Source of the DNA: an uncultured Burkholderiales bacterium
Lineage (GTDB): Bacteria > Pseudomonadota > Gammaproteobacteria > Burkholderiales > Thiobacteraceae
Assembly (NCBI GenBank): GCA_964445085.1
Contig: CAYUJV010000001.1
Coordinates: forward strand, 812-64,811
DNA length: 64,000 nucleotides
Reading direction: 5' to 3'
Shown: positions 145-45,479 of the stretch, one piece after another
Position numbering within the stretch: the first letter of the stretch is position 1
Layout: each line of letters starts with the position of its first letter
Made by a program: the position numbers and the translations under genes
Notes under the pieces: generated by a model
Told to the model about the DNA's origin: nothing
The model's input: the letters and a program-made list of their open reading frames with translations, nothing else
Databases searched by the model: none

Positions 145-159
145 GCAACGGCTGTGCCA
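145..159 (-). promoter_or_regulatory. sigma54 (-24/-12) promoter for prkA
   Basis: Minus strand reads TGGCAC-agccg-TTGC about 48 bp upstream of the prkA ATG. Confidence 0.6.
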
Positions 160-4367: not shown

Positions 4368-4382
4368 TGGCACATGAGTTGC
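4368..4382 (+). promoter_or_regulatory. sigma54 (-24/-12) promoter of the isc-type operon
   Basis: TGGCAC-atgag-TTGC, 68 bp upstream of the iscS ATG. Confidence 0.7.
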
Positions 4383-5758: not shown

Positions 5759-6193
5759 ATGTCTTACAGCGACAAGGTACTGGACCACTACGAGAACCCG
5801 CGCAATGTCGGCGGCTTCGAGGCGGACGATGCATCGGTCGGCACCGGCATGGTGGGCGCCCCGGCCTGCGGCGACGTGATGAAGCTGCAGATCAAGGTGA
5901 ACGACGCTGGCGTGATCGAGGAAGCGCGCTTCAAGACCTACGGCTGCGGCTCGGCCATCGCTTCCAGTTCGCTGGTGACGGAATGGGTCAAGGGCAAGAC
6001 GCTGGACCAGGCGCTGGCGATCAAGAACACCGACATCGCCGAAGAGCTGGCCCTGCCGCCGGTGAAGATCCACTGCTCCATCCTGGCCGAGGACGCCATC
6101 AAGGCGGCCGTGGCCGACTACCGCAACAAGCACGAAGTCGCCGACGCCGGCTACGCCGCCTGCGACCCCAGTTCAGTATCTGGCGCCGCCTAA
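5759..6193 (+). CDS. iscU: Fe-S cluster assembly scaffold IscU
   Basis: [18 protein letters not shown]...[11 protein letters not shown]...[11 protein letters not shown]...[18 protein letters not shown]. Confidence 0.95.
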
Positions 6194-10965: not shown

Positions 10966-10981
10966 TGGCACAGCCCTTGCT
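10966..10981 (+). promoter_or_regulatory. sigma54 (-24/-12) promoter of the nifV operon
   Basis: TGGCAC-agccc-TTGCT, 40 bp upstream of the nifV ATG. Confidence 0.7.
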
Positions 10982-27664: not shown

Positions 27665-29309
<1,645 letters not shown>

Positions 29310-29338: not shown

Positions 29339-29353
29339 GCAACGCCTGTGCCA
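29339..29353 (-). promoter_or_regulatory. sigma54 (-24/-12) promoter of the Rrf2 gene
   Basis: Minus strand reads TGGCAC-aggcg-TTGC, 30 bp upstream of the Rrf2 ATG. Confidence 0.55.
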
Positions 29354-31749: not shown

Positions 31750-31777
31750 ACCTTGTAATTTGAACTTTCGTGCCACC

Positions 31778-33826
31778 ATGGCCACTTTGATTTTTTATGA
31801 AAAGCCCGGCTGCGCGAACAATGCACGGCAGAAGCGGCTGCTGCTCGATGCCGGGCACGAACTCATCGTCCGCGACCTGCTGAGCGAGCCGTGGACGGCG
31901 CAGCGCCTGCTGACATTCTTCGACGGCCTGCCAGTCGCCGAGTGGTTCAACCGCGCCGCGCCGCAGGTGAAATCCGGCGAGATCGACCCGGCGCGCGTTG
32001 GGGCCGAGGCGGCGCTGAAACTGATGCTGAGCAATCCATTGCTGATCCGGCGTCCGCTGATCGAAGGGAACGGCTGGCGGCTTGCGGGCTTCGACGCCGA
32101 GTTCGTACGCAGGCACCTGGGCGTGGCACCGGACGATGCGCCGCGCGACCTCGAGTCCTGCCGCCGTCCACCTGGCGCGGCCCCCTGCCCCGCGCCCCAG
32201 GACAGCCGGCGCGCGGAGGTGGCGCTCGCCTACCACGAGCGCACCAAGCATCGCCCTGAGCGCTACGCCGCCGGTCCGGAGACCCTGGACTGGACGGGCC
32301 AGCCGGACCCGTTCCGTACATTCAAGGGAAGTCCCACCCTCCGCCTGCCGCTGTGCGGCGGGCGCCTGGCCACCTCCTTCGCCGGCATCTATACGCCAGA
32401 GGAAGTCTGGTCGCCGGCGCTATCGCTGGATGCGCTGGGCGCGCTGCTGGAACTGTCGCTCGGCCTGTCGGCGTGGAAGGAATACGGCCCGGACCGCTGG
32501 GCGCTGCGCTGCAACCCCTCCAGCGGCAACCTGCACCCGACCGAGGCCTACGTGATCGCGCGTGGCATCGCGGGACTGGATGACGGCCTCTATCACTACG
32601 CGAGCCGCAGCCACGCGCTGGAGCAACGCTGTCGCGCACCAGCGGATGGAGCGGCGAGCGAGCACGGGCTGTGGATCGGGCTCTCCTCGATCCACTGGCG
32701 CGAGGCGTGGAAATACGGCGAGCGTGCCTTTCGCTATTGCCAGCTCGACGTGGGCCATGCCCTGGCCGCGCTGCGCTACGCCGCCGGCGTGCTCGGCTGG
32801 CGGCTGCGCCTGGTGACGGCCTGCGAGCACTCGCATCTGGCGCGGCTGCTGGGCCTCGATCGGGTCGAGGATTTTCCCGGCGCGGAACGGGAGGACGCCG
32901 ACCTGCTGGTGCAGGTGCTGCCACGAACCGAACCCAAACTGACTGCCGCGGCGCCTGAGCCCTGGCCGGACGCGCACTCGATGTGGATGGGCCAGGCGAA
33001 TACCCTCGATCCCCATCCCATGTACAGCTGGCCGGTCATCGACGAAGTCGCGGCCGCCACGAAAAAAACCGGGCAGGCGACGGAAGCACCCGCGCGCAGC
33101 CAGTATCCGCCCGCGACCCCCGCCGCCGGGCTGCCCGCCGCCCAGGTCATCCTCGGCCGGCGCAGCGCGCAGCGTTTCGATCCGCAGTTCGTCCTGCCAG
33201 CCAAGGACTTTTTCCACCTGCTCGACAGCCTGCTTCACCGGCCGCACGCGCCGTGGGACGTATGGGACCATGGGCCCAGGGTTCATCCCGTTCTGTTCGT
33301 GCACCGCGTGGAGAGCATCGCGCCCGGGCTTTACATCCTGGTGCGTGCGCCGGACGCGGAGGTGCGGTTGCGCACGGCAATGAGCGATGAGTTCGAATGG
33401 GAACGCGTGCAAGGCTGCCCGGCACACCTTCCCCTGTTCCGCCTGCAGCCCGGCAAGTGGCACAAGGTCGCGCGCGCGGTGAGCTGCCAGCAGGCCATCG
33501 CCGCCGACAGCTGCTTCTCGCTGGGCATGCTGGCAGAGTTCGAACCCACCCTGCGGGAGGACGCCTGGCGCTACCGCCAGTTGCACTGGGAAGCAGGTCT
33601 GCTGGGGCACGTGCTGTATCTCGAAGCGGAAACGCTGGAGCTGCGCGGCACCGGCATCGGCTGCTTCCTCGACGATGCGTTCCACGAACTGCTGGGGCTG
33701 AAGGACCGCAGCTTCCAGTCCCTCTACCACTTCACGGTGGGCCGCGCGCTCAGCGACACGCGCATCACCACCCTGCCGCCTTACCCGGACCGCGAGGCGG
33801 TGCCCGACACGGAGCCCATGCCATGA
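31778..33826 (+). CDS. fusion protein: ArsC/Spx-fold 'nitrogenase-associated protein' domain plus tandem SagB/nitroreductase-like dehydrogenase domains
   Basis: N-terminus MATLIFYEKPGCANNARQKRLLLDAGHELIVRDLLSEPWT...WFNRAAPQVKSGEI. After a Pro/Ala linker comes AYHERTKHRPERYAAGPETLDWTGQPDPFR...CNPSSGNLHPTE...GIGCFLDD. Confidence 0.75.
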   Translation: MATLIFYEKPGCANNARQKRLLLDAGHELIVRDLLSEPWTAQRLLTFFDGLPVAEWFNRAAPQVKSGEIDPARVGAEAALKLMLSNPLLIRRPLIEGNGWRLAGFDAEFVRRHLGVAPDDAPRDLESCRRPPGAAPCPAPQDSRRAEVALAYHERTKHRPERYAAGPETLDWTGQPDPFRTFKGSPTLRLPLCGGRLATSFAGIYTPEEVWSPALSLDALGALLELSLGLSAWKEYGPDRWALRCNPSSGNLHPTEAYVIARGIAGLDDGLYHYASRSHALEQRCRAPADGAASEHGLWIGLSSIHWREAWKYGERAFRYCQLDVGHALAALRYAAGVLGWRLRLVTACEHSHLARLLGLDRVEDFPGAEREDADLLVQVLPRTEPKLTAAAPEPWPDAHSMWMGQANTLDPHPMYSWPVIDEVAAATKKTGQATEAPARSQYPPATPAAGLPAAQVILGRRSAQRFDPQFVLPAKDFFHLLDSLLHRPHAPWDVWDHGPRVHPVLFVHRVESIAPGLYILVRAPDAEVRLRTAMSDEFEWERVQGCPAHLPLFRLQPGKWHKVARAVSCQQAIAADSCFSLGMLAEFEPTLREDAWRYRQLHWEAGLLGHVLYLEAETLELRGTGIGCFLDDAFHELLGLKDRSFQSLYHFTVGRALSDTRITTLPPYPDREAVPDTEPMP

Positions 33827-34614
33827 GCCACGAAAAACCCTTTCAGCGCATCGACGCCGAAGCCGCGCGCCGCCTGCTCGCCCGCGGCAAGGTGCTGGTG
33901 CTGGATTCCCGCGACCAGGTTCGCTTCGACCTGGCGCACATTCCCACGGCGCGGCACCTGACCAGCGGCAATCTGGACGCCTTCGTGCTCGCCACGCCGA
34001 AAACCACGCCGGTGCTGATCTACTGCTACCACGGCAACGCGAGCCAAACCCACGCCCAGACCTTCGCCGACTTCGGCTTTGGCGAGGTCTACAGCCTGGA
34101 TGGCGGCTTCGCCGCTTGGCAGCGGGCGCAGCCGAAATCGTCCCCGCCCACGCTCACGCTGCGGCTTGCCCAATGGCTGCGGGAACATGGCTATCCCGCC
34201 GACGACCTCGACGCGGTGGCAGAACACGGCATGACGCCCCTGATGCGCGCCGCCAAGCTGGGCGACACGGCGATCGTGTTCGAACTGATCCAGAGCGGCG
34301 CCGCCCTCGACGCCACCAACGTGGACGGCAATACCGCGCTGTGGCTGGCCTGCGTGGGCGAAAGCCTGGAGGCCATCGACCTTCTCATCCGCGCCGGCGC
34401 GAACCCGGACCACCAGAACGATAACGGTGCCACCTGTCTGATGTATGCCGCCTCGACGGGAAAGCATCGGGTGGTGGAGCAGTTGCTGGCGTCCGGGGCG
34501 GACCCGCGGCTGAAGAGCCTGGACGATTTCACCGCGCTGGACATGGCGGCGACGATCGAGTGCCTGCGGACGTTGCGGAAGGCAACGAAAGACCCCACGC
34601 CGATGGCGGGCTGA
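33823..34614 (+). CDS. rhodanese (GlpE-type) - ankyrin-repeat fusion protein
   Basis: Active-site loop CYHGNAS and DGGFAAW, followed by ankyrin repeats (GMTPLMRAAKLGDTAIVFELIQSGAALDATNVDGNTALWLA...). ATGA overlap with the upstream gene. Confidence 0.75.
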   Translation: MSHEKPFQRIDAEAARRLLARGKVLVLDSRDQVRFDLAHIPTARHLTSGNLDAFVLATPKTTPVLIYCYHGNASQTHAQTFADFGFGEVYSLDGGFAAWQRAQPKSSPPTLTLRLAQWLREHGYPADDLDAVAEHGMTPLMRAAKLGDTAIVFELIQSGAALDATNVDGNTALWLACVGESLEAIDLLIRAGANPDHQNDNGATCLMYAASTGKHRVVEQLLASGADPRLKSLDDFTALDMAATIECLRTLRKATKDPTPMAG

Positions 34615-34705: not shown

Positions 34706-35572
34706 TCAGCCTGCGGCGGCCACGGGCTCGGGAGTCTGCGCGCCGCTCAACACGCTTTGAAACACCTCGAGCGGCATATCCAGCCGTTGGATATTCTGCT
34801 CCGCCAGGAAGCGCGCCTCGTTTTTGGTCAGTTCGCCCGGGAGCACGGCCCAGTGCACGTCGGAGGAACGCTTCATGATCTGGCGCGCGAAGGTCCGTTC
34901 CAACTGGTTGCGGAAGCGGCAGCCGAGGAAAAGGAAATGGCGGCCGGTGCGCAATTGCTGCACCACCTCCGGAATCGGGGTCTGGATGTCGATCTCGGTG
35001 AGCACTTCCACGAAGTCGGTGTCCGAGACCAGGAAATTCTTCGCCGGGCTGATCCCACCGAGGGGCTTGTACAGCAGCACCGGCCAGGTATCGGCTTCCT
35101 CGGGGTCGCCCTGGGCGCCATCCTGGCGGAAGTAGTGGGTCCAGGTGCCGAAGTGCTCGGACTGGCTGACGCCCTGCACCTGCCCCCACAGCAGCCGCGA
35201 CTGCAGCGCGGTCCCCATGGCGTTGTCGTACCAGGCGTCGACGATCAGCAGCGGCTCGCGCCGGATGGCGGCGATGGTGTGGTGCAGCACGGTGGGCGCC
35301 ACCGCGGGGGCAAAGGCCTCCGCCATGATTCCCACCAGGGTCTTGCGGTGCTTGAAGTTCTCGATGTACTGGGCGGCCGCCGTCAGGTTGCCGCGAATCT
35401 TGTGCGGCACGCTCGACTTCGCCACCAGGCGCTGCACCAGTTCTTCCGGCGACTTGGGCACCGGGCTTCCCCCCGGGACCAGATCGAGCATGCCCGGCCC
35501 CAGATAAGGCACGACGCTGCCCTCTTCCAGGTAGGCGGAAATCTCCTTCAGCAGCGCCGTAGTCTTGTCCAT
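34706..35572 (-). CDS. SIR2_2-like (SIR2-fold) protein, last gene of the nifB operon (tentative family call)
   Basis: By-eye match to the SIR2_2 pattern: VVPYLGPGM, LLIVDAWYDNAM, LLYKPLGG...FLVSDTDF, RHFLFLGCRF. 288 aa. Confidence 0.6.
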   Translation of the reverse strand: MDKTTALLKEISAYLEEGSVVPYLGPGMLDLVPGGSPVPKSPEELVQRLVAKSSVPHKIRGNLTAAAQYIENFKHRKTLVGIMAEAFAPAVAPTVLHHTIAAIRREPLLIVDAWYDNAMGTALQSRLLWGQVQGVSQSEHFGTWTHYFRQDGAQGDPEEADTWPVLLYKPLGGISPAKNFLVSDTDFVEVLTEIDIQTPIPEVVQQLRTGRHFLFLGCRFRNQLERTFARQIMKRSSDVHWAVLPGELTKNEARFLAEQNIQRLDMPLEVFQSVLSGAQTPEPVAAAG

Positions 35573-35584
35573 GATCGCTTCTCC

Positions 35585-35797
35585 TCAGGCCGCAGACGAT
35601 TTCAGTTGATCGATCTGCTGGCGCGGGATCCGGAAGATGGCACGCCCGCCGGACAGGACTTCATAGCAGTCGGTGGTGGCGCGGGTGAGCAGGTTGAACC
35701 AGTCCTGCGCACTGAGCGTACCCGGGCGCTCGCCGATTTCGGTGACGCTGCCGTTGGGGGCGAAGCGTACGTGGATCATGACCTTGTCGTTGTCCAT
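35585..35797 (-). CDS. hypothetical protein (70 aa)
   Basis: ORF-track ORF with a GGAGAG RBS, 16 bp after the ferredoxin gene. No recognisable domain. Confidence 0.55.
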   Translation of the reverse strand: MDNDKVMIHVRFAPNGSVTEIGERPGTLSAQDWFNLLTRATTDCYEVLSGGRAIFRIPRQQIDQLKSSAA

Positions 35798-35813: not shown

Positions 35814-36119
35814 TCACAGGCCGGAACCGAAGCCCAGCAGCTCCACCGTCACGTCCTCGCTGCCCAGCTTCGCCTGGCAGGCCAGCCGCGACTTGGATCC
35901 GACGCCGACGATGCTGTCGAGCTTTTCGTTCTCGGCGCGCTGGATTTTGGACAGGCTCTTGCGTCCATCGTGGACGAAGATGTGACACGCACCGCAGTCG
36001 GCCTTGCCCCCACACTTGCTGCCGATTTTTTCGCCGGCGGCGAGCAGGGCTTCGAGGATGCTCATGCCCTCGGCGGACTGCACGGTCTTGCCGGAGGGAT
36101 TGATTGTCAACAGTGGCAT
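35814..36119 (-). CDS. [2Fe-2S] ferredoxin
   Basis: MPLLTINPSGKTV...CGGKADCGAC...RLACQ. Strong AAGGAG RBS. Internal ATG of ORF 35814..36161. Confidence 0.75.
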   Translation of the reverse strand: MPLLTINPSGKTVQSAEGMSILEALLAAGEKIGSKCGGKADCGACHIFVHDGRKSLSKIQRAENEKLDSIVGVGSKSRLACQAKLGSEDVTVELLGFGSGL

Positions 36120-36157: not shown

Positions 36158-37309
36158 TCATAGGTAAATGGCCGAGCCCGCCCCGATGTTCACCGAGGCG
36201 TCCTTGGCGGTCTGCACGATGAAGCCGATCTGGTCCTCGCTCAGATGGGCGTGGAACGGCAGCGCGATGATGCGGTCGGCCACCTTCTCCGTAACCAGAA
36301 AGTCGCCCTTGCGGTAGCCCAGATTGGTGTAGAAGGCCTGCAGGTGCTGCGGCTGGCAGTAGGCCGCGGCTTCGATCTTCTCCGTGTGCAGGTCATTCAC
36401 GATGGCGTCGCGGCTGCTCCGCGTGAAGCGCGTGCCCAGATGCACCAGGTACAGGAACCAGTGCACCTCGGTCACGTCCGGCCCGATGTAGGGGTCCTTG
36501 ATGCCCTCGAAGGATTTCACGTAGTCGTAGTAGATCTGCTCCACCTGCTTGCGCCGGGCGAGGATCTGGTCGATGCGCTGCAGTTGGGTCAGGCCGATCG
36601 CCGCCGTCATTTCGTTCATGCCCGCCTGATACGGCAGGCTGCCGGTGATCACGATGGAAAAGCGTTCGTCCATCCTCCGGCTGCGCAGGTAGCGCAGCTT
36701 GCTCGCCAGTTCCGGATCGTCGGTCACGGCCATGCCGCCTTCGCCGCAGGTGAGCGCACCCGGCTGGGAGAAATCGAAGATGGCGACGTCGCCGAAGCCC
36801 CCCACGCGGCGCCCCTGGTAGGTGGAGCCGATGGCCTCGGTGGAGTCCTCGATGAGCTTGAGGCCGTGACGCGTGGCCATGTCGCGCAGTGCCGCCCATG
36901 GCGCGGGATGGCCATTGGTGTTCCCGGCCAGGATGGCACGGGTGGCGGGGGTGATTTTCGCCTCGACCTTCTCCGCCGCCAGCGTGCCGGACCAGTAGTC
37001 GATGTCGGCGAAGACGGGTCTGGCACCGGCGAGCGCGATCGCATGGGAGATCTGATGCCAGCTGTAGGGCGAGGCGATGACCTCGTCACCCGGTCCAATG
37101 CCCATCGCCTTCAGTGCCAGCAGCAGGCCCAGGGTGCCGCTGGCGACGGCCACGCCGTGCCTGCGGTCGGTGTAGGCCGCGAAGGCCGCCTCGAAGGACG
37201 CGACCGCCGGACCCTGGCTCAGGCGCGGCGACTTGAGGATGTCGGCGACCGCATCCAGTTCCAGCAGACTGATGTCGGGATCGGACAGGGGAATCCAGCC
37301 TTCGGTCAT
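36158..37309 (-). CDS. DegT/DnrJ/EryC1/StrS-fold aminotransferase-like protein lacking the Schiff-base lysine
   Basis: Family-typical GTLGLLLALKAMGIGPGDEVI, LIEDSTEAIGS and FDFSQPGALTCGEGG. In the last block the position normally held by the PLP-binding Lys (FSFxxxKxxTxGEGG) is Gly. Confidence 0.8.
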   Translation of the reverse strand: MTEGWIPLSDPDISLLELDAVADILKSPRLSQGPAVASFEAAFAAYTDRRHGVAVASGTLGLLLALKAMGIGPGDEVIASPYSWHQISHAIALAGARPVFADIDYWSGTLAAEKVEAKITPATRAILAGNTNGHPAPWAALRDMATRHGLKLIEDSTEAIGSTYQGRRVGGFGDVAIFDFSQPGALTCGEGGMAVTDDPELASKLRYLRSRRMDERFSIVITGSLPYQAGMNEMTAAIGLTQLQRIDQILARRKQVEQIYYDYVKSFEGIKDPYIGPDVTEVHWFLYLVHLGTRFTRSSRDAIVNDLHTEKIEAAAYCQPQHLQAFYTNLGYRKGDFLVTEKVADRIIALPFHAHLSEDQIGFIVQTAKDASVNIGAGSAIYL

Positions 37310-37318
37310 CGCCTGTCC

Positions 37319-37579
37319 TCAGTTGCGCGCCGCCACCACGATGCCGGTCGCAGCCCCCGGATCGTCGGTGATGCGCCAGCAGTGTTCCCGGCCATCCACC
37401 AGATAGAGGTCGAATTTCGGATACGCCCGAAACGGCTCCTCGCCGCTCATGTCCTGCGCGTCACAGCGGGTGAGCGACAGACCGGGAAAGCGGGCGCGAA
37501 AATCGGCGAGGGGATTCGCCTCCGCCGGCGGTGTCGCCAGCAGGTCGTCGAGGTGCGCAAGATCGTCCTGGGTGATCAT
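37319..37579 (-). CDS. hypothetical small nif-cluster protein (86 aa)
   Basis: MITQDDLAHLDDLLATPP... Internal ATG of ORF 37319..37699, 11 bp after nifT. Confidence 0.55.
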   Translation of the reverse strand: MITQDDLAHLDDLLATPPAEANPLADFRARFPGLSLTRCDAQDMSGEEPFRAYPKFDLYLVDGREHCWRITDDPGAATGIVVAARN

Positions 37580-37590
37580 GTCTGTTCCCC

Positions 37591-37800
37591 CTACTCTCCG
37601 AGCCGGCGCGCTTCCACCGTGATCGGCAGGGTGGTCTCCGGCGCCATCGCCGGCAGTTCCAGGCGCCAGCCATTGGCCAGCGTCACCACCCCGCCCCACA
37701 TGCCCGCCTGCTCCATGGCGACGATGGGCTCTTCCAGATCCTTCTTCGCCACGTAGGCGGACAGGGTGCCTTGGGCATCTTTTCTGATCATCACTTTCAC
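37591..37800 (-). CDS. nifT: nitrogen fixation protein NifT/FixU
   Basis: MKVMIRKDAQGTLSAYVAKKDLEEPIV...WGGVVTLANGWRLELP...LPITVEA. Confidence 0.85.
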   Translation of the reverse strand: MKVMIRKDAQGTLSAYVAKKDLEEPIVAMEQAGMWGGVVTLANGWRLELPAMAPETTLPITVEARRLGE

Positions 37801-37827: not shown

Positions 37828-38982
37828 TCATGCCGCCTCGGCGGTCAGTCGTTTGACGATGGAACCCAGCGCATCGAGCACGCGGTCGATCTCTGCCTCA
37901 GTCGTGTAGCGGCTCAGGGAGAAGCGAATGGTCGCCAGTGCCTCCGCCTCGCTCAGCCCCATGGCGGTCAGCACGTGCGACGGCACATTGCCGCCGGCGG
38001 TGCACGCCGCGCCGGAGGAGGCGCAGATGTGCGCCTTGTCCAGGCGGTCGAGGATCACCTCGGCCTGCAGCCCGCCGAAGCAGATGCTGCTGGTGTTGCC
38101 GATGCGCGGGGCCAGCCCGCCGTTGAGGGTGGTGCCCGGGATGCGCATGAGCACGCCGGTCTCGAGCCGGTCGCGCAGGGCAGTGGTCTGCCTGGCTTTC
38201 GCCTGCAGCTCGGCGGCGGCGAGCTCGCAGGCGACGCCCAGGCCGACGATGGCCGGCACGTTCTCCGTCCCGCCGCGGCGCCTGCGCTCCTGGTGGCCAA
38301 ACAGCAGGGGCGGAAATTTCAGCCCCTTGCGCACGAACAGGGCGCCAACCCCCTTGGGCGCGTGCAGCTTGTGGCCGGAGAGGGAAAGCAGGTCGGCCGG
38401 TATCTGCGCCAGGTCGATGGGCGCCTTGCCCGCCGCTTGCACGGCATCGGTGTGGAACAGCACGCCCTTGGATTTGGCGATACGCGCCGCCTCCGCTATG
38501 GGGAACAGTACCCCGGTTTCGTTGTTGGCCCACATCAGGGACACCAGGGCGGTGTCGGCGGTGATCGCCCGCTCCAGCGCCATGAGGTCGAGCATGCCTT
38601 CGCCGTTGACGGGCAGCCGGGTCACGCGCAGGCCACCGCGCTCCAGCTGCGCCAGCAGTTCCAGGCTGGAGGGATGCTCCACCGCGCTCACCACCACGTG
38701 CGACTTGCCCGGGCATGCGGCCAGCGCCCCGAGAATGGCAAGGTGGTTGGATTCCGTGCCGCAGGAGGTGAACACGATCTCCGCCGGCGCCGCATTGAGC
38801 AGGCGCGCCACGGCGCGCCGCGCCTGTTCCACCTGCTCCCTGGCGGCCACACCCGCGGCGTGTTTGCTGGACGGATTGCCGTAGAGATCGCGCAGGCAGC
38901 GCAAGACCGGCTCCACGCATTCCGGCGCCAAGGCCGTGGTGGCGTTGTTGTCCAGATACACGATGGGGTCCTGATCCGTCAT
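37828..38982 (-). CDS. nifS: cysteine desulfurase NifS
   Basis: VYLDNNATT...TSCGTESNHLA...LSLSGHKLHAPKGVGALF...SSGAACT. 384 aa. Internal ATG of ORF 37828..39537. Confidence 0.9.
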   Translation of the reverse strand: MTDQDPIVYLDNNATTALAPECVEPVLRCLRDLYGNPSSKHAAGVAAREQVEQARRAVARLLNAAPAEIVFTSCGTESNHLAILGALAACPGKSHVVVSAVEHPSSLELLAQLERGGLRVTRLPVNGEGMLDLMALERAITADTALVSLMWANNETGVLFPIAEAARIAKSKGVLFHTDAVQAAGKAPIDLAQIPADLLSLSGHKLHAPKGVGALFVRKGLKFPPLLFGHQERRRRGGTENVPAIVGLGVACELAAAELQAKARQTTALRDRLETGVLMRIPGTTLNGGLAPRIGNTSSICFGGLQAEVILDRLDKAHICASSGAACTAGGNVPSHVLTAMGLSEAEALATIRFSLSRYTTEAEIDRVLDALGSIVKRLTAEAA

Positions 38983-39299
38983 TGCCAGAAAATCCGGTCC
39001 GGGTCGTGATTCAGCACGTCGAGCACGGTGCCCAGGGAGCGGAACTCGCCGTACAGCAGCCATGAACGCTCTGCATGGTCCTTGCGATAGAGACGCCAGG
39101 CGCGCTTGCCTTCCATATACTCCAGGCGGGCGATGTCGATCACGCCGCCCTCCGGGTCCACATTGCGGGAGCAGCAGGGGCTCTGTATCCAGTACCCCGT
39201 GTCGGCCGGCTTCACCGCGGGTGACACGTAGCGATAGCGCCTGCGCGCTGCCAGTGCGCGTTCGATGCGTTTGCGGTCGATGTCGTTCGGATGCTGCAC
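38979..39299 (-). CDS. DUF3024-like protein
   Basis: GTG start. RYRYVSP...WIQSPCCSRNVDPEGG...WRLYRKDHAERSW. Its stop overlaps the nifS start (ATGA). Confidence 0.55.
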   Translation of the reverse strand: MQHPNDIDRKRIERALAARRRYRYVSPAVKPADTGYWIQSPCCSRNVDPEGGVIDIARLEYMEGKRAWRLYRKDHAERSWLLYGEFRSLGTVLDVLNHDPDRIFWQ

Positions 39300-39326: not shown

Positions 39327-39566
39327 CTACAGCGGCGCGATCTCTTCCTCGAGGCAGCCCACCACCCGGCCCTCCGGGAATTCCACCAGGTAGACCGGCA
39401 GGTTCAGTTCCTCGTGATGCCCGACGTTGACGATCTCGCCCTGGGTGCCGTTGCTCACCAGCAGCGCGTCCGGTTCGCGATCCGGGTAGGTGCCGTCGTT
39501 GAACAGGTCGGTGGTGGCCACGACCGGCTGGCCCCACTGGTATTTCGCTTCCCGCAGTTCGATCAT
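39327..39566 (-). CDS. nifZ: NifZ-domain protein (paralog 2)
   Basis: YQWGQPVVATTDLFNDGTYPD...LLVSNGTQGEIVNVG...VYLVEFPEGRVVGC. Confidence 0.8.
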   Translation of the reverse strand: MIELREAKYQWGQPVVATTDLFNDGTYPDREPDALLVSNGTQGEIVNVGHHEELNLPVYLVEFPEGRVVGCLEEEIAPL

Positions 39567-39880
39567 GCTGCCTCCCCGCTCAGTGCGGCATCGCCGGCCG
39601 GCTTCTCGTCCTCGACCGCTTCCAGCTCCTTGCCCCGCATGCCGACCCGGTGGCCGGTGTCGATGAAATCCACGGCATAGATGTAGAACTGCTGCAAGAA
39701 CGTGCCGATGCTGGTGACGTAGCCGATGTCGCCCTTGCGCACCAGTATTTCGCCGATGTCCTTGCCGGCGTAGGTGCCGTCGTTGCGCACGGTCTTGGTG
39801 GAGCGCACCTTCTGGCCGTAGTCGAAGATCGGGTCGGCGGTGAGTTCCACGATGTCGCTGTCACGACTGATTTTTGCCAT
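39563..39880 (-). CDS. nifZ: NifZ-domain protein (paralog 1)
   Basis: FDYGQKVRSTKTVRNDGTYAG...ILVRKGDIGYVTSIG...IYAVDFIDTGHRVGM. 4-nt overlap with paralog 2. Confidence 0.8.
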   Translation of the reverse strand: MAKISRDSDIVELTADPIFDYGQKVRSTKTVRNDGTYAGKDIGEILVRKGDIGYVTSIGTFLQQFYIYAVDFIDTGHRVGMRGKELEAVEDEKPAGDAALSGEAA

Positions 39881-39893
39881 GGCTGCCCCCTGC

Positions 39894-40673
39894 CTATACG
39901 AGAGTCAGAACCGGTTCATCCTGCCCGCCACTGCCGGATGCCAGGCGGGCGGCGGCCAGCTCGCGGACCATGGGGTCCGCGTCGTCCCGCATGCGGGTGA
40001 GCGCCTTGCCGGAGATGCGGCCCGCCACTTCGTAGCGCACGCGCCAGTCCGGATCGTCGGCCAGCAGGTGCAGCTGCCCGTCCTTGAGCCGCTTGGCCAC
40101 CTCCTGACGCACGGCCGCATCCTCGTCGTGGACCATGTGCGTGAGCCAGCCTTCTGCGATACGGCGCGCGACGGTGCAGCGCACGGAAACGTCCGGGTCG
40201 CGCACCATCAGCGGCAGCAGCGCTTCCGGGATGCGGCGCGCCACCACCTGGCGCACGTAGTAATCCGGGTCATTGATCATGGCGCCGAGGTCGCGCGGCT
40301 CGAGGCGCGCGGCCACGCGGATGCGCACCTCCCGGTGCGGGTCGTTGATGAGCGTCAGCAAATGCTTGGGCGGCAGGCGCATGGCGGCGCTCCAGCGCAC
40401 CGTTTCGTCGGGGTCGTACATCATGCGCGGCAGATGGAACACGTCCACGTGCTTGGCTGCCACCGCACGCACTTCGAAATAGGGGTGATCCAGAAAATTC
40501 CGGGCGCGATCCGGGTTCCAGTCGAAGAAGCGGTCGATGTGCTTGGCATAGCGGTCCTCGACGCAGGCGTGGCCCAGCCGGCAGCGGTCCTGCGCAAGCA
40601 GTTCCCGGCAGGCGCACGCGCCGCAGTCGATTCTGTCTCCCGGCCAGTTCAGGGGCGGGCCAATGTCATTCAT
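39894..40673 (-). CDS. leucine-rich-variant (LRV) [4Fe-4S] protein
   Basis: N-terminal Cys cluster CGACACRELLAQDRCRLGHAC followed by repeated DPDxxVRxxVAxRL helices. Confidence 0.8.
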   Translation of the reverse strand: MNDIGPPLNWPGDRIDCGACACRELLAQDRCRLGHACVEDRYAKHIDRFFDWNPDRARNFLDHPYFEVRAVAAKHVDVFHLPRMMYDPDETVRWSAAMRLPPKHLLTLINDPHREVRIRVAARLEPRDLGAMINDPDYYVRQVVARRIPEALLPLMVRDPDVSVRCTVARRIAEGWLTHMVHDEDAAVRQEVAKRLKDGQLHLLADDPDWRVRYEVAGRISGKALTRMRDDADPMVRELAAARLASGSGGQDEPVLTLV

Positions 40674-41232
40674 CGTCGTCCTCCCGGCCGTGGCGGGCGA
40701 GCACCTGGAGCAGGACGGTGGCGTTCAGTTTGTCGCTCGGGTCCAGCTCCAGCATTTTGGTGAGCGCGGCATGGCTTTCCTCCAGCCGCCCGAGGCGCAT
40801 CTGCAGGTAGCCGTAGGCTTTCAGGGTGAACAGATAGAAGCGCGGCAGGATCGCATCGTAGCTACCGAAATCGGCATCGCTCCGATGCACGGCACGCCAG
40901 TCCTCGTTCAGGCGGTTGTCCCGCGCCGCCTTCGCCAGGACACGCCTGGCCACCAGCAACGCATCCGTCAGGCGCCCCTTGTAGAAATAGAAGCGGTACA
41001 GCGCGATCAGCACGGCGGCATGCCCCGGCGCAAGCGCCTGGGCCTGGAACAGGTGGCTCTCCGCCACCGCGTCGTGCGCGTAATTGAGCCCCGCCAGGCG
41101 CAGGTGCAGTTCAGCCTGCTCCGGCAGGTGCCCGCCGAGACAGGCACGCTCCAGCCAGTCCGGGTTGATGTCCTCCGGTGCGTCGGCGGTGCTCATCGGC
41201 CGGCCCTCCCCTGTCACGCGCACCGTTGCCAT
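40666..41232 (-). CDS. nif-associated TPR-like protein, paralog 2
   Basis: LYRFYFYK, FYLFTLKA, MRLGR and ELDP blocks are shared with 17647..18120. Alternative start at 41196 (GGGGAGGG RBS). 8-nt overlap with the LRV gene. Confidence 0.7.
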   Translation of the reverse strand: MATVRVTGEGRPMSTADAPEDINPDWLERACLGGHLPEQAELHLRLAGLNYAHDAVAESHLFQAQALAPGHAAVLIALYRFYFYKGRLTDALLVARRVLAKAARDNRLNEDWRAVHRSDADFGSYDAILPRFYLFTLKAYGYLQMRLGRLEESHAALTKMLELDPSDKLNATVLLQVLARHGREDDDE

Positions 41233-41250: not shown

Positions 41251-41616
41251 TCAGTGCTTGCGCCCGATGCTGGAGATATCGACGCTGGCGACGCCGCCGC
41301 TCGAACTGCTGCAGCCGCAGGAGGGCGAATTCGGCGTGACGAAGGTCAGGCCGCTGTTGGTCGGCGTGTCGGCGAAGTCCATGGTAGCGCCTTCCAGCAG
41401 CAGGCGACTTTCCGCCGGCAGGAAGAACTTCACGCCGTTGACCTCGACCACCGCATCGCCCTCTTTCGGCGCCGCTTCCACGGTGAATTCGGACGCGAGT
41501 CCGGAACAGCCGCCGGCGCTGACCATCAGGCGAAAGCCGGCGTTCTCGCCCGCACCGCCGAAGCGGATCATGCGGCGCACGAACTTCTCGGCGGCGGGCG
41601 TCATCGTGAACTGCAT
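41251..41616 (-). CDS. HesB/IscA-family Fe-S carrier (IscA-nif type)
   Basis: FRLMVSAGGCSGLASEF ... SCGCSSS C-terminal Cys pair. Confidence 0.8.
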   Translation of the reverse strand: MQFTMTPAAEKFVRRMIRFGGAGENAGFRLMVSAGGCSGLASEFTVEAAPKEGDAVVEVNGVKFFLPAESRLLLEGATMDFADTPTNSGLTFVTPNSPSCGCSSSSGGVASVDISSIGRKH

Positions 41617-41879: not shown

Positions 41880-43439
41880 TCATGCCGCGATGAAGGCGCC
41901 CTGGCGGATGCTCGCGTCGCCGCGCTCCTGGTGCACGATCTCGCCGCTCTTCACCTTTTCCAGGTAGTCCTTGAAGTAGCGCAGGGCAGACTGTTCGATG
42001 TACTCGTTGGCGTACTGGTCCACCGCGTCGATGCCGGCGGCCTTCAGGTCGGCCTTGGGACAGCCGCCGATCTTGGCCACGAACACCGCATGGCAGTCGT
42101 TGATGGCGCGGATCACCGTGGCGAGCGTGTCCTCCTCGCCGAAGCCGCCCTGGCAGTACATGTCCACCCGGCGATGGCCGACGAACTTGGCGCCGGACGT
42201 CGAGAGTTCGTAGATCTGAAACTCGTGGGCGTGCCCGAAGTGCTCGTTGATGCGGCCGCTGCCCTTGGTGGCGACGGCCACCAGCATCCTGAGGCCGGCG
42301 AATTCGCCGGACATGTCTTCCAGTTCCGCCTGCCGCGCCTCGACCTTGGCCTGGCGTTCCTTCTCCACGGCTTCCTGGTAGGCCTTGCGGCCCTCCAGGT
42401 CATAGGTGACTTCCATCGCTTCGATCTTTTCGGTGGTGAACTCGGCGCTGCGGTCCTCGCCCAGCAGGCCGACGGCGTCGGCCCGGCACTGGCGGCAGTG
42501 GCGCATCATGTTCATCTCGCCCTCGCACTGGTCCTGCAGGGCCTTGAGCTCCTGCGCGGTGGGGCCGCGCTGGCCGTTGAGGCCGAACACGGTGCCGTGC
42601 TCCGGTGCCGAGATGAGCGGCATGATGTTGTGCAGGAAGGCGCCGCGGGATTTCACCGCCCTGTTCACCTCGACCAGGTGCTGGTCGTTGATGCCGGGGA
42701 TCATCACCGAGTTGACCTTGCACAGGATGCCGCGCTCGGTCAGCATCTCCAGGCCGCGCAGCTGGTGCTCGCTCAGGATGCGCGCCGCGTCGATGCCCTT
42801 CCAGCGCTTGTTCTTCCAGAAGATCCACGGGTAGATGTGCTGCCCCACTTCCGGATCGACCATGTTGATGGTGATGGTGACGTGGTCGATGTTGTACTGG
42901 GACAGGCGATCGACGTGCTCGGGCAGCGCCAGACCATTGGTGGACACGCACAGCTTGATGTCCGGTGCGGTCTTGGCCACCAGCTCGAAGGTCTTGAAGG
43001 TCTTTTCGGGATTGGCGAGGGGGTCTCCGGGGCCGGCGATGCCCAGCACCGTCATCTGCGGAATGGTGGAGGCCACCGCCAGCACCTTCTTCGCCGCCTG
43101 CTCCGGCGTGAGCTTCTCGCTCACCACACCGGGACGCGACTCGTTGGCGCAATCGTACTTGCGGTTGCAGTAGTTGCACTGGATGTTGCAGGCCGGCGCC
43201 ACGGCCACGTGCATGCGTGCGTAATGGTGATGGGCCTCCTCGCTGTAGCAGGGATGGTTCTTCACCTTCTCCCAGATTTCCGGCGGCAGGTCGTTCTGCC
43301 CCGCGCCCGAGCCGCAGCTGGCCTTGCCGCTGCCGCCCGAGGTGCCGCAGCCCTTGTGCTCGGCCATCTGCTGCATGATCTGATCGAGAGGCTTGATCTG
43401 ATCGATGCCCACGCTCGCCACACTTGCCTGATTGTCCAT
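41880..43439 (-). CDS. nifB: FeMo-cofactor biosynthesis radical-SAM protein NifB (with C-terminal NifX-like domain)
   Basis: [28 protein letters not shown] and C-terminal [25 protein letters not shown]. The ATG at 43439 was chosen because the sigma54 promoter lies inside the longer ORF 41880..43535. Confidence 0.9.
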
Positions 43440-43519: not shown

Positions 43520-43534
43520 GCAACAAGCATGCCA
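43520..43534 (-). promoter_or_regulatory. sigma54 (-24/-12) promoter of nifB
   Basis: Minus strand reads TGGCAT-gcttg-TTGC, about 80 bp upstream of the nifB ATG. Confidence 0.7.
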
Positions 43535-45464: not shown

Positions 45465-45479
45465 GCAAGTAGCGTGCCA
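45465..45479 (-). promoter_or_regulatory. sigma54 (-24/-12) promoter of nifA
   Basis: Minus strand reads TGGCAC-gctac-TTGC, about 70 bp upstream of ATG 45392. Confidence 0.6.

Follow-up and report, generated by a model that had tools for sequence, protein, structure and literature searches.

A lysine-less DegT-fold protein conserved in proteobacterial nif operons

A DegT-like gene in a nifB operon

The DNA analyzed here, referred to as the window, is a stretch of 64,000 nucleotides from an uncultured Burkholderiales bacterium of the Thiobacteraceae (assembly GCA_964445085.1, contig CAYUJV010000001.1, positions 812 to 64,811). On its reverse strand lies an operon with the gene order nifB, IscA-like, TPR, LRV, nifZ, nifZ, DUF3024, nifS, nifT, DUF6129-like, DegT-like, ferredoxin (Fdx), a 70-amino-acid (70-aa) open reading frame (ORF) and SIR2-like, in which the genes of the tail are separated by gaps of 9-38 bp. 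The subject of this study is the DegT-like gene (36158-37309, reverse strand), which encodes a DegT-fold protein of 383 amino acids without the lysine that forms the Schiff base with pyridoxal 5'-phosphate (PLP). The protein is intact and belongs to a DegT-fold subfamily that is strongly conserved and restricted to nif.

Residues 16-366 of the ORF match PF01041 (DegT_DnrJ_EryC1; E 6e-96, 322 bits against a cut-off of 19.8 bits), and the family blocks GDEVI and IEDSTEAIGS are present together with the active-site stretch FDFSQPGALTCGEGG. The protein reaches no cut-off of the NCBIfam equivalogs for characterized sugar transaminases and dehydrases, including PseC, ArnB, DesI, WecE and LegC: the best score, for PseC, is 238 bits against a cut-off of 423.5, followed by 215 against 631 for ArnB and 133 against 423 for RfbH (NF011936). 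A fold-type I (aspartate aminotransferase-like) fold is predicted by the AlphaFold2 model, which has a predicted local distance difference test (pLDDT) score of 92.4 and was superposed by Foldseek on GDP-perosamine synthase (3bn1/3dr4) with a template modelling (TM) score of 0.89-0.94 and a root-mean-square deviation of 1.9 Å. A protein atlas search with the DegT-like query returned its own cluster and generic DegT clusters, and nothing else.

Among 189 orthologues from three proteobacterial classes, 147 of the 383 positions are at least 95% conserved. A clade-specific C-terminal tail (371-382) is conserved, and so is a loop insertion with Arg216 and Pro226. In the metagenome loci the identity to the protein of the window is 57-68%, exceeding that of NifS (47-60%).

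The Schiff-base lysine column

The initial annotation, made from the DNA letters and their translations, had described the family blocks and had proposed that glycine takes the place of the Schiff-base lysine. A phmmer search against solved structures aligns Gly184 (codon 36760-36758) with Lys186 of GDP-perosamine synthase (3bn1) and with the mutated Lys188 of ArnB K188A (4oca). The alignment of FDFSQPGALTCGEGG with FSFFGNKIITTGEGG of GDP-perosamine synthase (3bn1) is free of gaps, and Gly184 thus marks the lysine column. The alignment check that the annotation had called for gives the same answer: with MAFFT, five Lys-bearing relatives have their Lys in this column and three RfbH/E1 equivalogs have His there, whereas the clade to which the DegT-like protein belongs has Gly or Ser.

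For the clade as a whole we aligned 189 non-identical proteins and translated loci with 92 selected Lys-bearing outgroups. Neither Lys nor His occurs at column 184 in any of the 189 orthologues, where Gly is the most frequent residue, Ser the second, and Ala, Phe or Leu are found in a few; Lys is present in 92 of the 92 outgroups. A search of 5.8 billion proteins recovered 120 orthologues at 71-100% identity, every one with the motif lacking the lysine. Among representatives of clusters at 50% identity there is a sharp break, with members of the clade lying at roughly 50% identity or more and carrying Gly or Ser, and with Lys in 123 of 135 relatives below. Distant members found in whole genomes (50-63% identity) have Gln, Gly or Ser at the column. 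Three Lys-less metagenome singletons (P0156, P0158 and P0187) share 40-45% identity and keep Trp84, Asn130, Asn132, His134, Asp155, Glu158, Asp179 and Cys188, while the Ser-Gly-Thr phosphate loop is degenerate in P0158 and P0187; a metagenome scan with P0156 recovered main-clade loci only.

Loss of the lysine is thus clade-wide, and neither a chance event nor a mutation of one strain, the latter being an objection that the initial annotation had raised against itself. Since no internal aldimine can form without this lysine, the DegT-like protein is not a transaminase, and the view of the initial annotation that it is no classical aminotransferase is supported. Relocation of the lysine was considered as well: the lysines conserved in the clade, at 114, 271, 342 and 369, fall by homology outside the cofactor strands, and nothing supports relocation.

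The former cofactor pocket

In aspartate aminotransferase, the C-terminal ends of three strands carry Asn194, Asp222/Tyr225 and Ser255/Lys258. Because of strand-for-strand homology to these ends, positions 130-134, 155-158 and 179-188 of the DegT-like protein should line the cofactor pocket.

Part of the set that contacts the cofactor is retained. Asp155, whose family equivalent contacts the pyridine N1, and Glu158, whose equivalent contacts O3' (PMC5936713), are each kept in 189 of the 189 orthologues, and Asp155 is also invariant in the outgroup. The Ser57-Gly58-Thr59 phosphate loop is kept (Gly58 in 187/189, Thr59 in 175/189), and so are Trp or Phe at position 84 beside the ring, Glu190-Gly191, and His322.

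Other positions have changed throughout the clade. The phosphate-binding serine of the family, Ser194 in Spr1654, lies five residues before the lysine and hydrogen-bonds the PLP phosphate (PMC5936713). The residue at this position is Asp179 (codon 36775-36773) in 188 of the 189 orthologues, as against Ser, Ala or Gly in 89 of the 92 outgroups. The family's Asn89 is replaced by His, His130 by Asn (189/189), Phe132 by Asn (188/189) and Thr188 by Cys (188/189), and position 134, variable in the family, is His in all 189 members. Gln182-Pro183 is part of the new invariant set (Pro183 in 188/189). In the NxR loop, Asn228 has become Gln and Arg230 Gly or Ala, so that the loop reads QxG. Divergent members keep Asp155, Glu158, Asp179, Asn130, His134, His322 and His353. 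Because Asp155, Glu158, Thr59 and Trp84 are conserved together with the new Asn/His set, the cofactor pocket appears to be remodelled yet strictly constrained.

The neighbouring ferredoxin

The gene that follows (35814-36119, reverse strand) encodes an iron-sulfur cluster (ISC)/adrenodoxin-type [2Fe-2S] ferredoxin (PF00111; TIGR02007 with E 6.5e-20, below the cut-off), the closest solved relative of which is E. coli Fdx (1i7h, E 1e-12). Its ORF starts 38 bp past the DegT-like stop, is preceded by an AAGGAG ribosome-binding site, and encodes the ligand pattern Cys36-X5-Cys42-X2-Cys45-X35-Cys81, in which all four cysteines are conserved. The initial description of the two genes holds in all its details, and the pairing extends well beyond the window: in 77 loci the available DNA reaches far enough downstream of the DegT-like gene, and Fdx is found there in 73 of them; where the gene order differs it accompanies the DegT-like gene and not nifS.

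Several loci argue against the ferredoxin being necessary. In three symbiotic-type Bradyrhizobium loci (L043, L061 and L069) there is no Fdx match in the approximately 350 bp between the DegT-like and 70-aa genes, and in two genomes (G017 and G286) no Fdx lies beside the DegT-like orthologue. In Xanthobacter tagetidis (L077:7242-7535) the Fdx orthologue is missing two of the four cluster cysteines (in the Cys36 region and at Cys45) and is otherwise conserved. As the ferredoxin is of the ISC type and is absent beside some orthologues, redox coupling of the DegT-like protein to it may occur but would not be obligatory; the ferredoxin could equally serve iron-sulfur (Fe-S) assembly of the NifS/IscA type. 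A complex prediction for the DegT-like dimer with the ferredoxin scored 0.00, which carries no weight either way.

Other genes and signals of the operon

All genes of the operon are on the reverse strand. The first is nifB (41880..43439, with its ATG at 43439; TIGR01290, E 2e-209, above the curated cut-off). It is followed by genes for an IscA/SufA-like Fe-S carrier (41251..41616; TIGR00049, E 8e-20, above the cut-off), a TPR protein (40666..41232) that has weak TPR Pfam matches and is conserved across loci, and an LRV Fe4S4 repeat protein (39894..40673; PF01816, PF05484). Next come two tandem nifZ genes (39563-39880 and 39327-39566; PF04319, E 9e-33 and 3e-27) and a DUF3024 gene (38979..39299; PF11225, E 2e-22), the stop of which overlaps the nifS start (ATGA). 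The position of the DUF3024 gene between nifZ and nifS is conserved in most related loci. The nifS-like cysteine desulfurase gene (37828..38982; PF00266) matches TIGR03402 with E 3e-149 and 497 bits, just under the cut-off of 531 bits, and precedes nifT/fixU (37591..37800; TIGR02934, E 2e-33).

Directly upstream of the DegT-like gene, and ending 9 bp before it, is a gene for a DUF6129-like protein of 86 amino acids (37319..37579; PF19624, E 1e-4, below the cut-off). In an alignment of this protein Arg28 and Cys67 are invariant and Cys39, Asp40, Asp43 and His66 nearly so; these residues could form a metal or Fe-S ligand set. Its predicted fold (pLDDT 87) gave no match in the PDB by Foldseek (best E 1.2). 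Beyond the ferredoxin gene, the 70-aa ORF (35585..35797) has no Pfam or NCBIfam match and contains the conserved motifs HvRF, ERP, WF, GGR and FR. The last gene (34706..35572; PF13289, E 2e-19) encodes a SIR2_2-like protein that is conserved in the loci and reads DAWYD and YKPLGG. In active SIR2_2/ThsA-type proteins, these are the places of the catalytic Asn and His. After this gene, a consensus scan placed a terminator-like hairpin at 34594..34610 (reverse strand).

NifA binds upstream activating sequences (UAS) of the form TGT-N10-ACA. Upstream of nifB we read two such UAS-like sites (43607-43592 and 43647-43632) and a sigma-54 type -24/-12 promoter, TGGCAT-N5-TTGC (43520..43534), all on the reverse strand. 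The exact motif TGGCAC-N5-TTGC has six matches in the window (145-159, 4368-4382, 10966-10980, 28698-28712, 29339-29353 and 45465-45479), where 0.21 would be expected; as some of these sites lie upstream of nifH and nifA, the window probably holds several sigma-54 dependent units.

Converging on the end of the nif operon is a forward-strand ORF (33397-34614) for a rhodanese domain fused to ankyrin repeats, the true start of which is probably well within the ORF. A long ORF at 31760-33826, also on the forward strand, has an ArsC-family N-terminus and nitroreductase-family segments.

Conservation of the block and its distribution among genomes

Synteny was counted by tblastn of the proteins of the window on 80 loci from named genomes. 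A DUF6129-like gene lies directly upstream of the DegT-like gene in 80 of the 80 loci, and the 70-aa ORF is present in 72. The tail block (DUF6129-like, DegT-like, Fdx, 70-aa and SIR2-like) is found in approximately 100 loci of Alpha-, Beta- and Gammaproteobacteria, at least 12 metagenome loci among them. The genera of the named genomes include Thiobacillus, Sulfuricella, Sulfuriferula, Gallionella, Bradyrhizobium, Xanthobacter and Azorhizobium, as well as Methylocapsa, Methylocella, Methylosinus, Methylocystis, Nitrospirillum, Rhodomicrobium and Methylomagnum. The Bradyrhizobium loci carry DegT-like orthologues at 64-69% identity.

The surroundings vary among these loci. In Alphaproteobacteria nifS-nifT is located elsewhere and Fdx is still found with the DegT-like gene, and in many of them the SIR2-like gene is upstream of nifB. 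The three Bradyrhizobium loci without Fdx keep the DUF6129-like, DegT-like and 70-aa genes, and have nifS-nifT-SIR2-like upstream of nifB. Gallionella-like loci and 12 metagenome loci show the order DegT-like, SIR2-like, Fdx. Of the two genomes without an adjacent Fdx, G017 has only nifS, nifT, DegT-like and SIR2-like, with both small genes missing, and G286 keeps the DegT-like/SIR2-like pair and is missing the 70-aa ORF. Wherever it was found, the DegT-like gene lies inside a nif operon.

The initial annotation had tied the protein to nitrogenase biogenesis, and the phyletic pattern supports a tie to nitrogenase genes. When 300 genomes were sampled evenly from the class to which the window belongs, 24 proved to be nifD-positive and five to carry the DegT-like gene, all five of them nifD-positive. 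Among 301 genomes centred on a Methylocapsa genome, eight are nifD-positive and two carry the gene, both again nifD-positive. With the two centre genomes excluded, the gene is present in 5 of 30 nifD-positive and in 0 of 569 nifD-negative genomes, a comparison in which relatives are not independent and significance is therefore overstated. In the genomes sampled, the DegT-like gene is restricted to those that carry nif. Because it is found in nifD-positive genomes only, yet in a minority of those, its product counts as an accessory rather than a core nif factor, in the operational sense of being encoded in nif operons and confined to diazotrophs.

Full-length NifU is encoded in 1 of 7 carriers of the DegT-like gene, as against 14 of 25 non-carriers, among 32 nifD-positive genomes (p 0.09, a weak trend that is confounded by ancestry). 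In the genome of the window itself, all matches to the NifU model are of IscU length, with one such match at approximately 5760-6170 of the window, and there is no nifU beside nifS.

Possible functions of the DegT-like protein

We tentatively favour, with somewhat less than even confidence, the view that a ligand is still bound where the family has its cofactor pocket. Residues that would surround a pyridine ring are kept: Asp155 would face N1 and Glu158 O3', Trp84 would lie next to the ring, and the Ser57-Gly58-Thr59 loop would be at the phosphate. A new invariant set (His89, Asn130, Asn132, His134, Asp179, Gln182-Pro183 and Cys188) would be arranged around them. Such a pocket would probably hold a B6 cofactor, pyridoxamine 5'-phosphate (PMP), or a related small ligand non-covalently. 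The protein would then act on a small molecule that maturation of the nitrogenase metalloclusters requires, either by Lys-independent chemistry or as a sensor of such chemistry. The adjacent ferredoxin, where present, may supply electrons.

Several observations weigh against this view. The serine that binds the PLP phosphate is replaced by an invariant aspartate, which should repel a phosphate, and the family-conserved Asn228 and Arg230 are now Gln and Gly or Ala; even the binding of PMP is therefore uncertain. There is no obvious catalytic base at the lysine column, where Gly, Ser, Ala, Phe and Leu replace one another freely. Not all divergent members keep Thr59, Cys188, His89 and Glu190, and the losses of Thr59, Glu190 and Cys188 weaken the case for a conserved B6 site. 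Finally, the SIR2-like neighbour is without the usual catalytic motifs of its family, which fits a non-catalytic reading of the block.

A somewhat less likely, though still serious, alternative is that the protein is a pseudoenzyme or adaptor, without catalytic activity of its own. As a scaffold, or as a sensor of a ligand, it would form an assembly with the SIR2-like protein, the ferredoxin and the small Cys/His protein, and this assembly would chaperone, protect or regulate nitrogenase maturation. In favour of this alternative are the joint loss of four family-conserved active-site residues (Lys at 184, the phosphate-binding Ser at 179, Asn228 and Arg230), the tolerance of column 184, and the DAWYD and YKPLGG sequences of the SIR2-like partner. 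The DegT-like/SIR2-like pair also persists without Fdx in G017 and G286, and without small genes (both in the former, the 70-aa ORF in the latter), and the conserved tail and the loop insertion could be interaction surfaces. However, the pocket residues, including the new polar set, are conserved beyond what a pure scaffold would need, and the invariance of Asp155 and Glu158 has no obvious structural reason if no ring ligand is bound. The initial annotation had instead drawn an analogy with ColD and with the redox enzyme E1, and a mechanism of the E1/SpnQ kind, in which a keto substrate is bound to PMP as a Schiff base and electrons from the ferredoxin reduce the intermediate, can be considered in this light. 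It is in keeping with the close association of Fdx with the DegT-like gene rather than with nifS, with the retained contacts to the B6 ring, and with the use of general ferredoxin or flavodoxin systems by SpnQ (PMC8987622). Nevertheless, we regard it as doubtful. ColD, E1 and SpnQ have a catalytic His in place of the Lys, to which E1 and SpnQ add a four-Cys [2Fe-2S] motif around PMP (PMC8987622). As a reference for E1 we aligned three RfbH equivalogs that score above the NCBIfam cut-off (L109-L111) with the query; their sequence there is LSFYPAHHITMGEGG, which places His in column 184, and they contain the motif Cys-X57-Cys-X1-Cys-X7-Cys. This motif is absent from the DegT-like query, which has just two cysteines, Cys188 and Cys318, neither of which aligns to it. 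Since there is no His at column 184 in any of the 189 orthologues and no four-Cys motif, the protein, judged from its residues, belongs to neither of the known Lys-less classes, ColD or E1, and the analogy does not hold. The five loci and genomes without an adjacent Fdx and the loss of two cluster ligands in X. tagetidis also count against this mechanism, as does the ISC type of the ferredoxin, which would suit NifS/IscA-type assembly in carriers that mostly have no full-length NifU.

The scarcity of NifU is in turn part of the argument for a pocket that binds a metal ion or an Fe-S or Mo species instead of B6, through Asp155, Glu158, Asp179, His134, His89, Asn130, Asn132 and Cys188, and that would, in concert with the ferredoxin and the small Cys/His protein, supply a function for which other systems have NifU. 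Relative to the family, a positive charge has been lost from the pocket (Lys to Gly) and a negative one gained (Ser to Asp), and His, Asn and Cys side chains have been added; none of these changes varies within the main clade. In the DUF6129-like partner Cys39, His66 and Cys67 are conserved, and full-length NifU is lacking in 6 of 7 carriers versus 11 of 25 non-carrier nifD-positive genomes. However, that trend is weak and confounded by shared ancestry, as stated above, divergent members have not retained Cys188 and His89, and we know of no precedent for a fold-type I PLP pocket that has become a metal site; we consider this explanation improbable. It is, by the same measure, a long shot that a pocket of this kind (Asp155, Glu158, Asp179, His134, Asn130, Asn132 and Cys188) forms, with the SIR2-like and Cys/His proteins and the ISC-type ferredoxin, an unrecognized maturation machine that replaces NifU-type functions in the many proteobacterial nif systems without full-length NifU. 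Least probable by far is that the gene encodes an ordinary sugar aminotransferase of glycan synthesis that happens to lie in the nif region, or a decaying relic. The database names (perosamine synthetase or dTDP-4-amino-4,6-dideoxygalactose transaminase) point to the former, and the closest solved relatives are such enzymes, but the clade is without the lysine, the NCBIfam equivalog cut-offs are not reached, and the gene occurs in nifD-positive genomes only and always within nif operons. Decay is ruled out because conservation is high and the frame is intact across approximately 190 sequences.

The database label of sugar aminotransferase is, on this analysis, wrong for these genes. The block is carried by well-studied diazotrophs (Bradyrhizobium, Azorhizobium, Xanthobacter, Methylosinus/Methylocystis, Nitrospirillum and Thiobacillus/Sulfuricella). 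If nitrogenase depends on it for maturation or protection where NifU is lacking, the known set of nif accessory factors would gain new members, and this set matters for moving nitrogen fixation into other hosts.

Comparison with known systems

In the searchable (non-subscription) literature, the sole mention of such a gene that we found is a gene table for Bradyrhizobium sp. ORS278; neither a study of its function nor a comment on the absent lysine came to light. In this table BRADO5411, a DegT-family aminotransferase, and BRADO5410, a 2Fe-2S ferredoxin, are listed under nitrogen fixation (PMC3899966), so that a DegT-family gene stands beside a [2Fe-2S] ferredoxin gene, as in the window. No difference from the gene pair of the window is expected there, or for other genes of nif clusters that are annotated as DegT/DnrJ/EryC1/StrS aminotransferases. 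The gene is not mentioned in papers on Zymomonas (PMC8594446), Methylacidiphilum (PMC3404531) and Mesorhizobium (PMC3538637).

Among structurally characterized proteins, GDP-perosamine synthase (3bn1/3dr4) and ArnB are similar in having the same fold (at the TM scores given above, and with 34% identity), the Asp to the pyridine N1, the Glu three residues on, the Ser-Gly-Thr phosphate loop and the GEGG turn. In contrast to these enzymes, the DegT-like protein has Gly184 for Lys186/188, Asp179 for the phosphate-binding Ser, QxG for NxR, and Asn-x-Asn-x-His for His-x-Phe-x-Gln at the end of the preceding strand. It has an extra conserved C-terminal tail, and its context is nif, whereas theirs is glycan synthesis.

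ColD (GDP-4-keto-6-deoxymannose 3-dehydratase) shares with the DegT-like protein a DegT fold without the Schiff-base lysine, but has a catalytic His at the column (PMC8987622); in the clade described here His never occurs at this position, which is taken by Gly, Ser, Ala, Phe or Leu. In addition, the ColD gene is found in O-antigen clusters and the DegT-like gene in a nif operon. The PMP- and [2Fe-2S]-dependent 3-dehydrases E1 (RfbH/AscC) and SpnQ resemble it further, as the lysine-less fold is linked, genetically or functionally, to an electron carrier of the [2Fe-2S] type. They differ in the His at the column and the four-Cys motif, both missing here. E1 also has a flavoprotein reductase, E3, as its partner, whereas the neighbour here is a small ISC-type ferredoxin. 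If the block is indeed needed for nitrogenase, ColD and E1 would be joined by a third kind of DegT-fold protein without the lysine, one that differs from both in mechanism.

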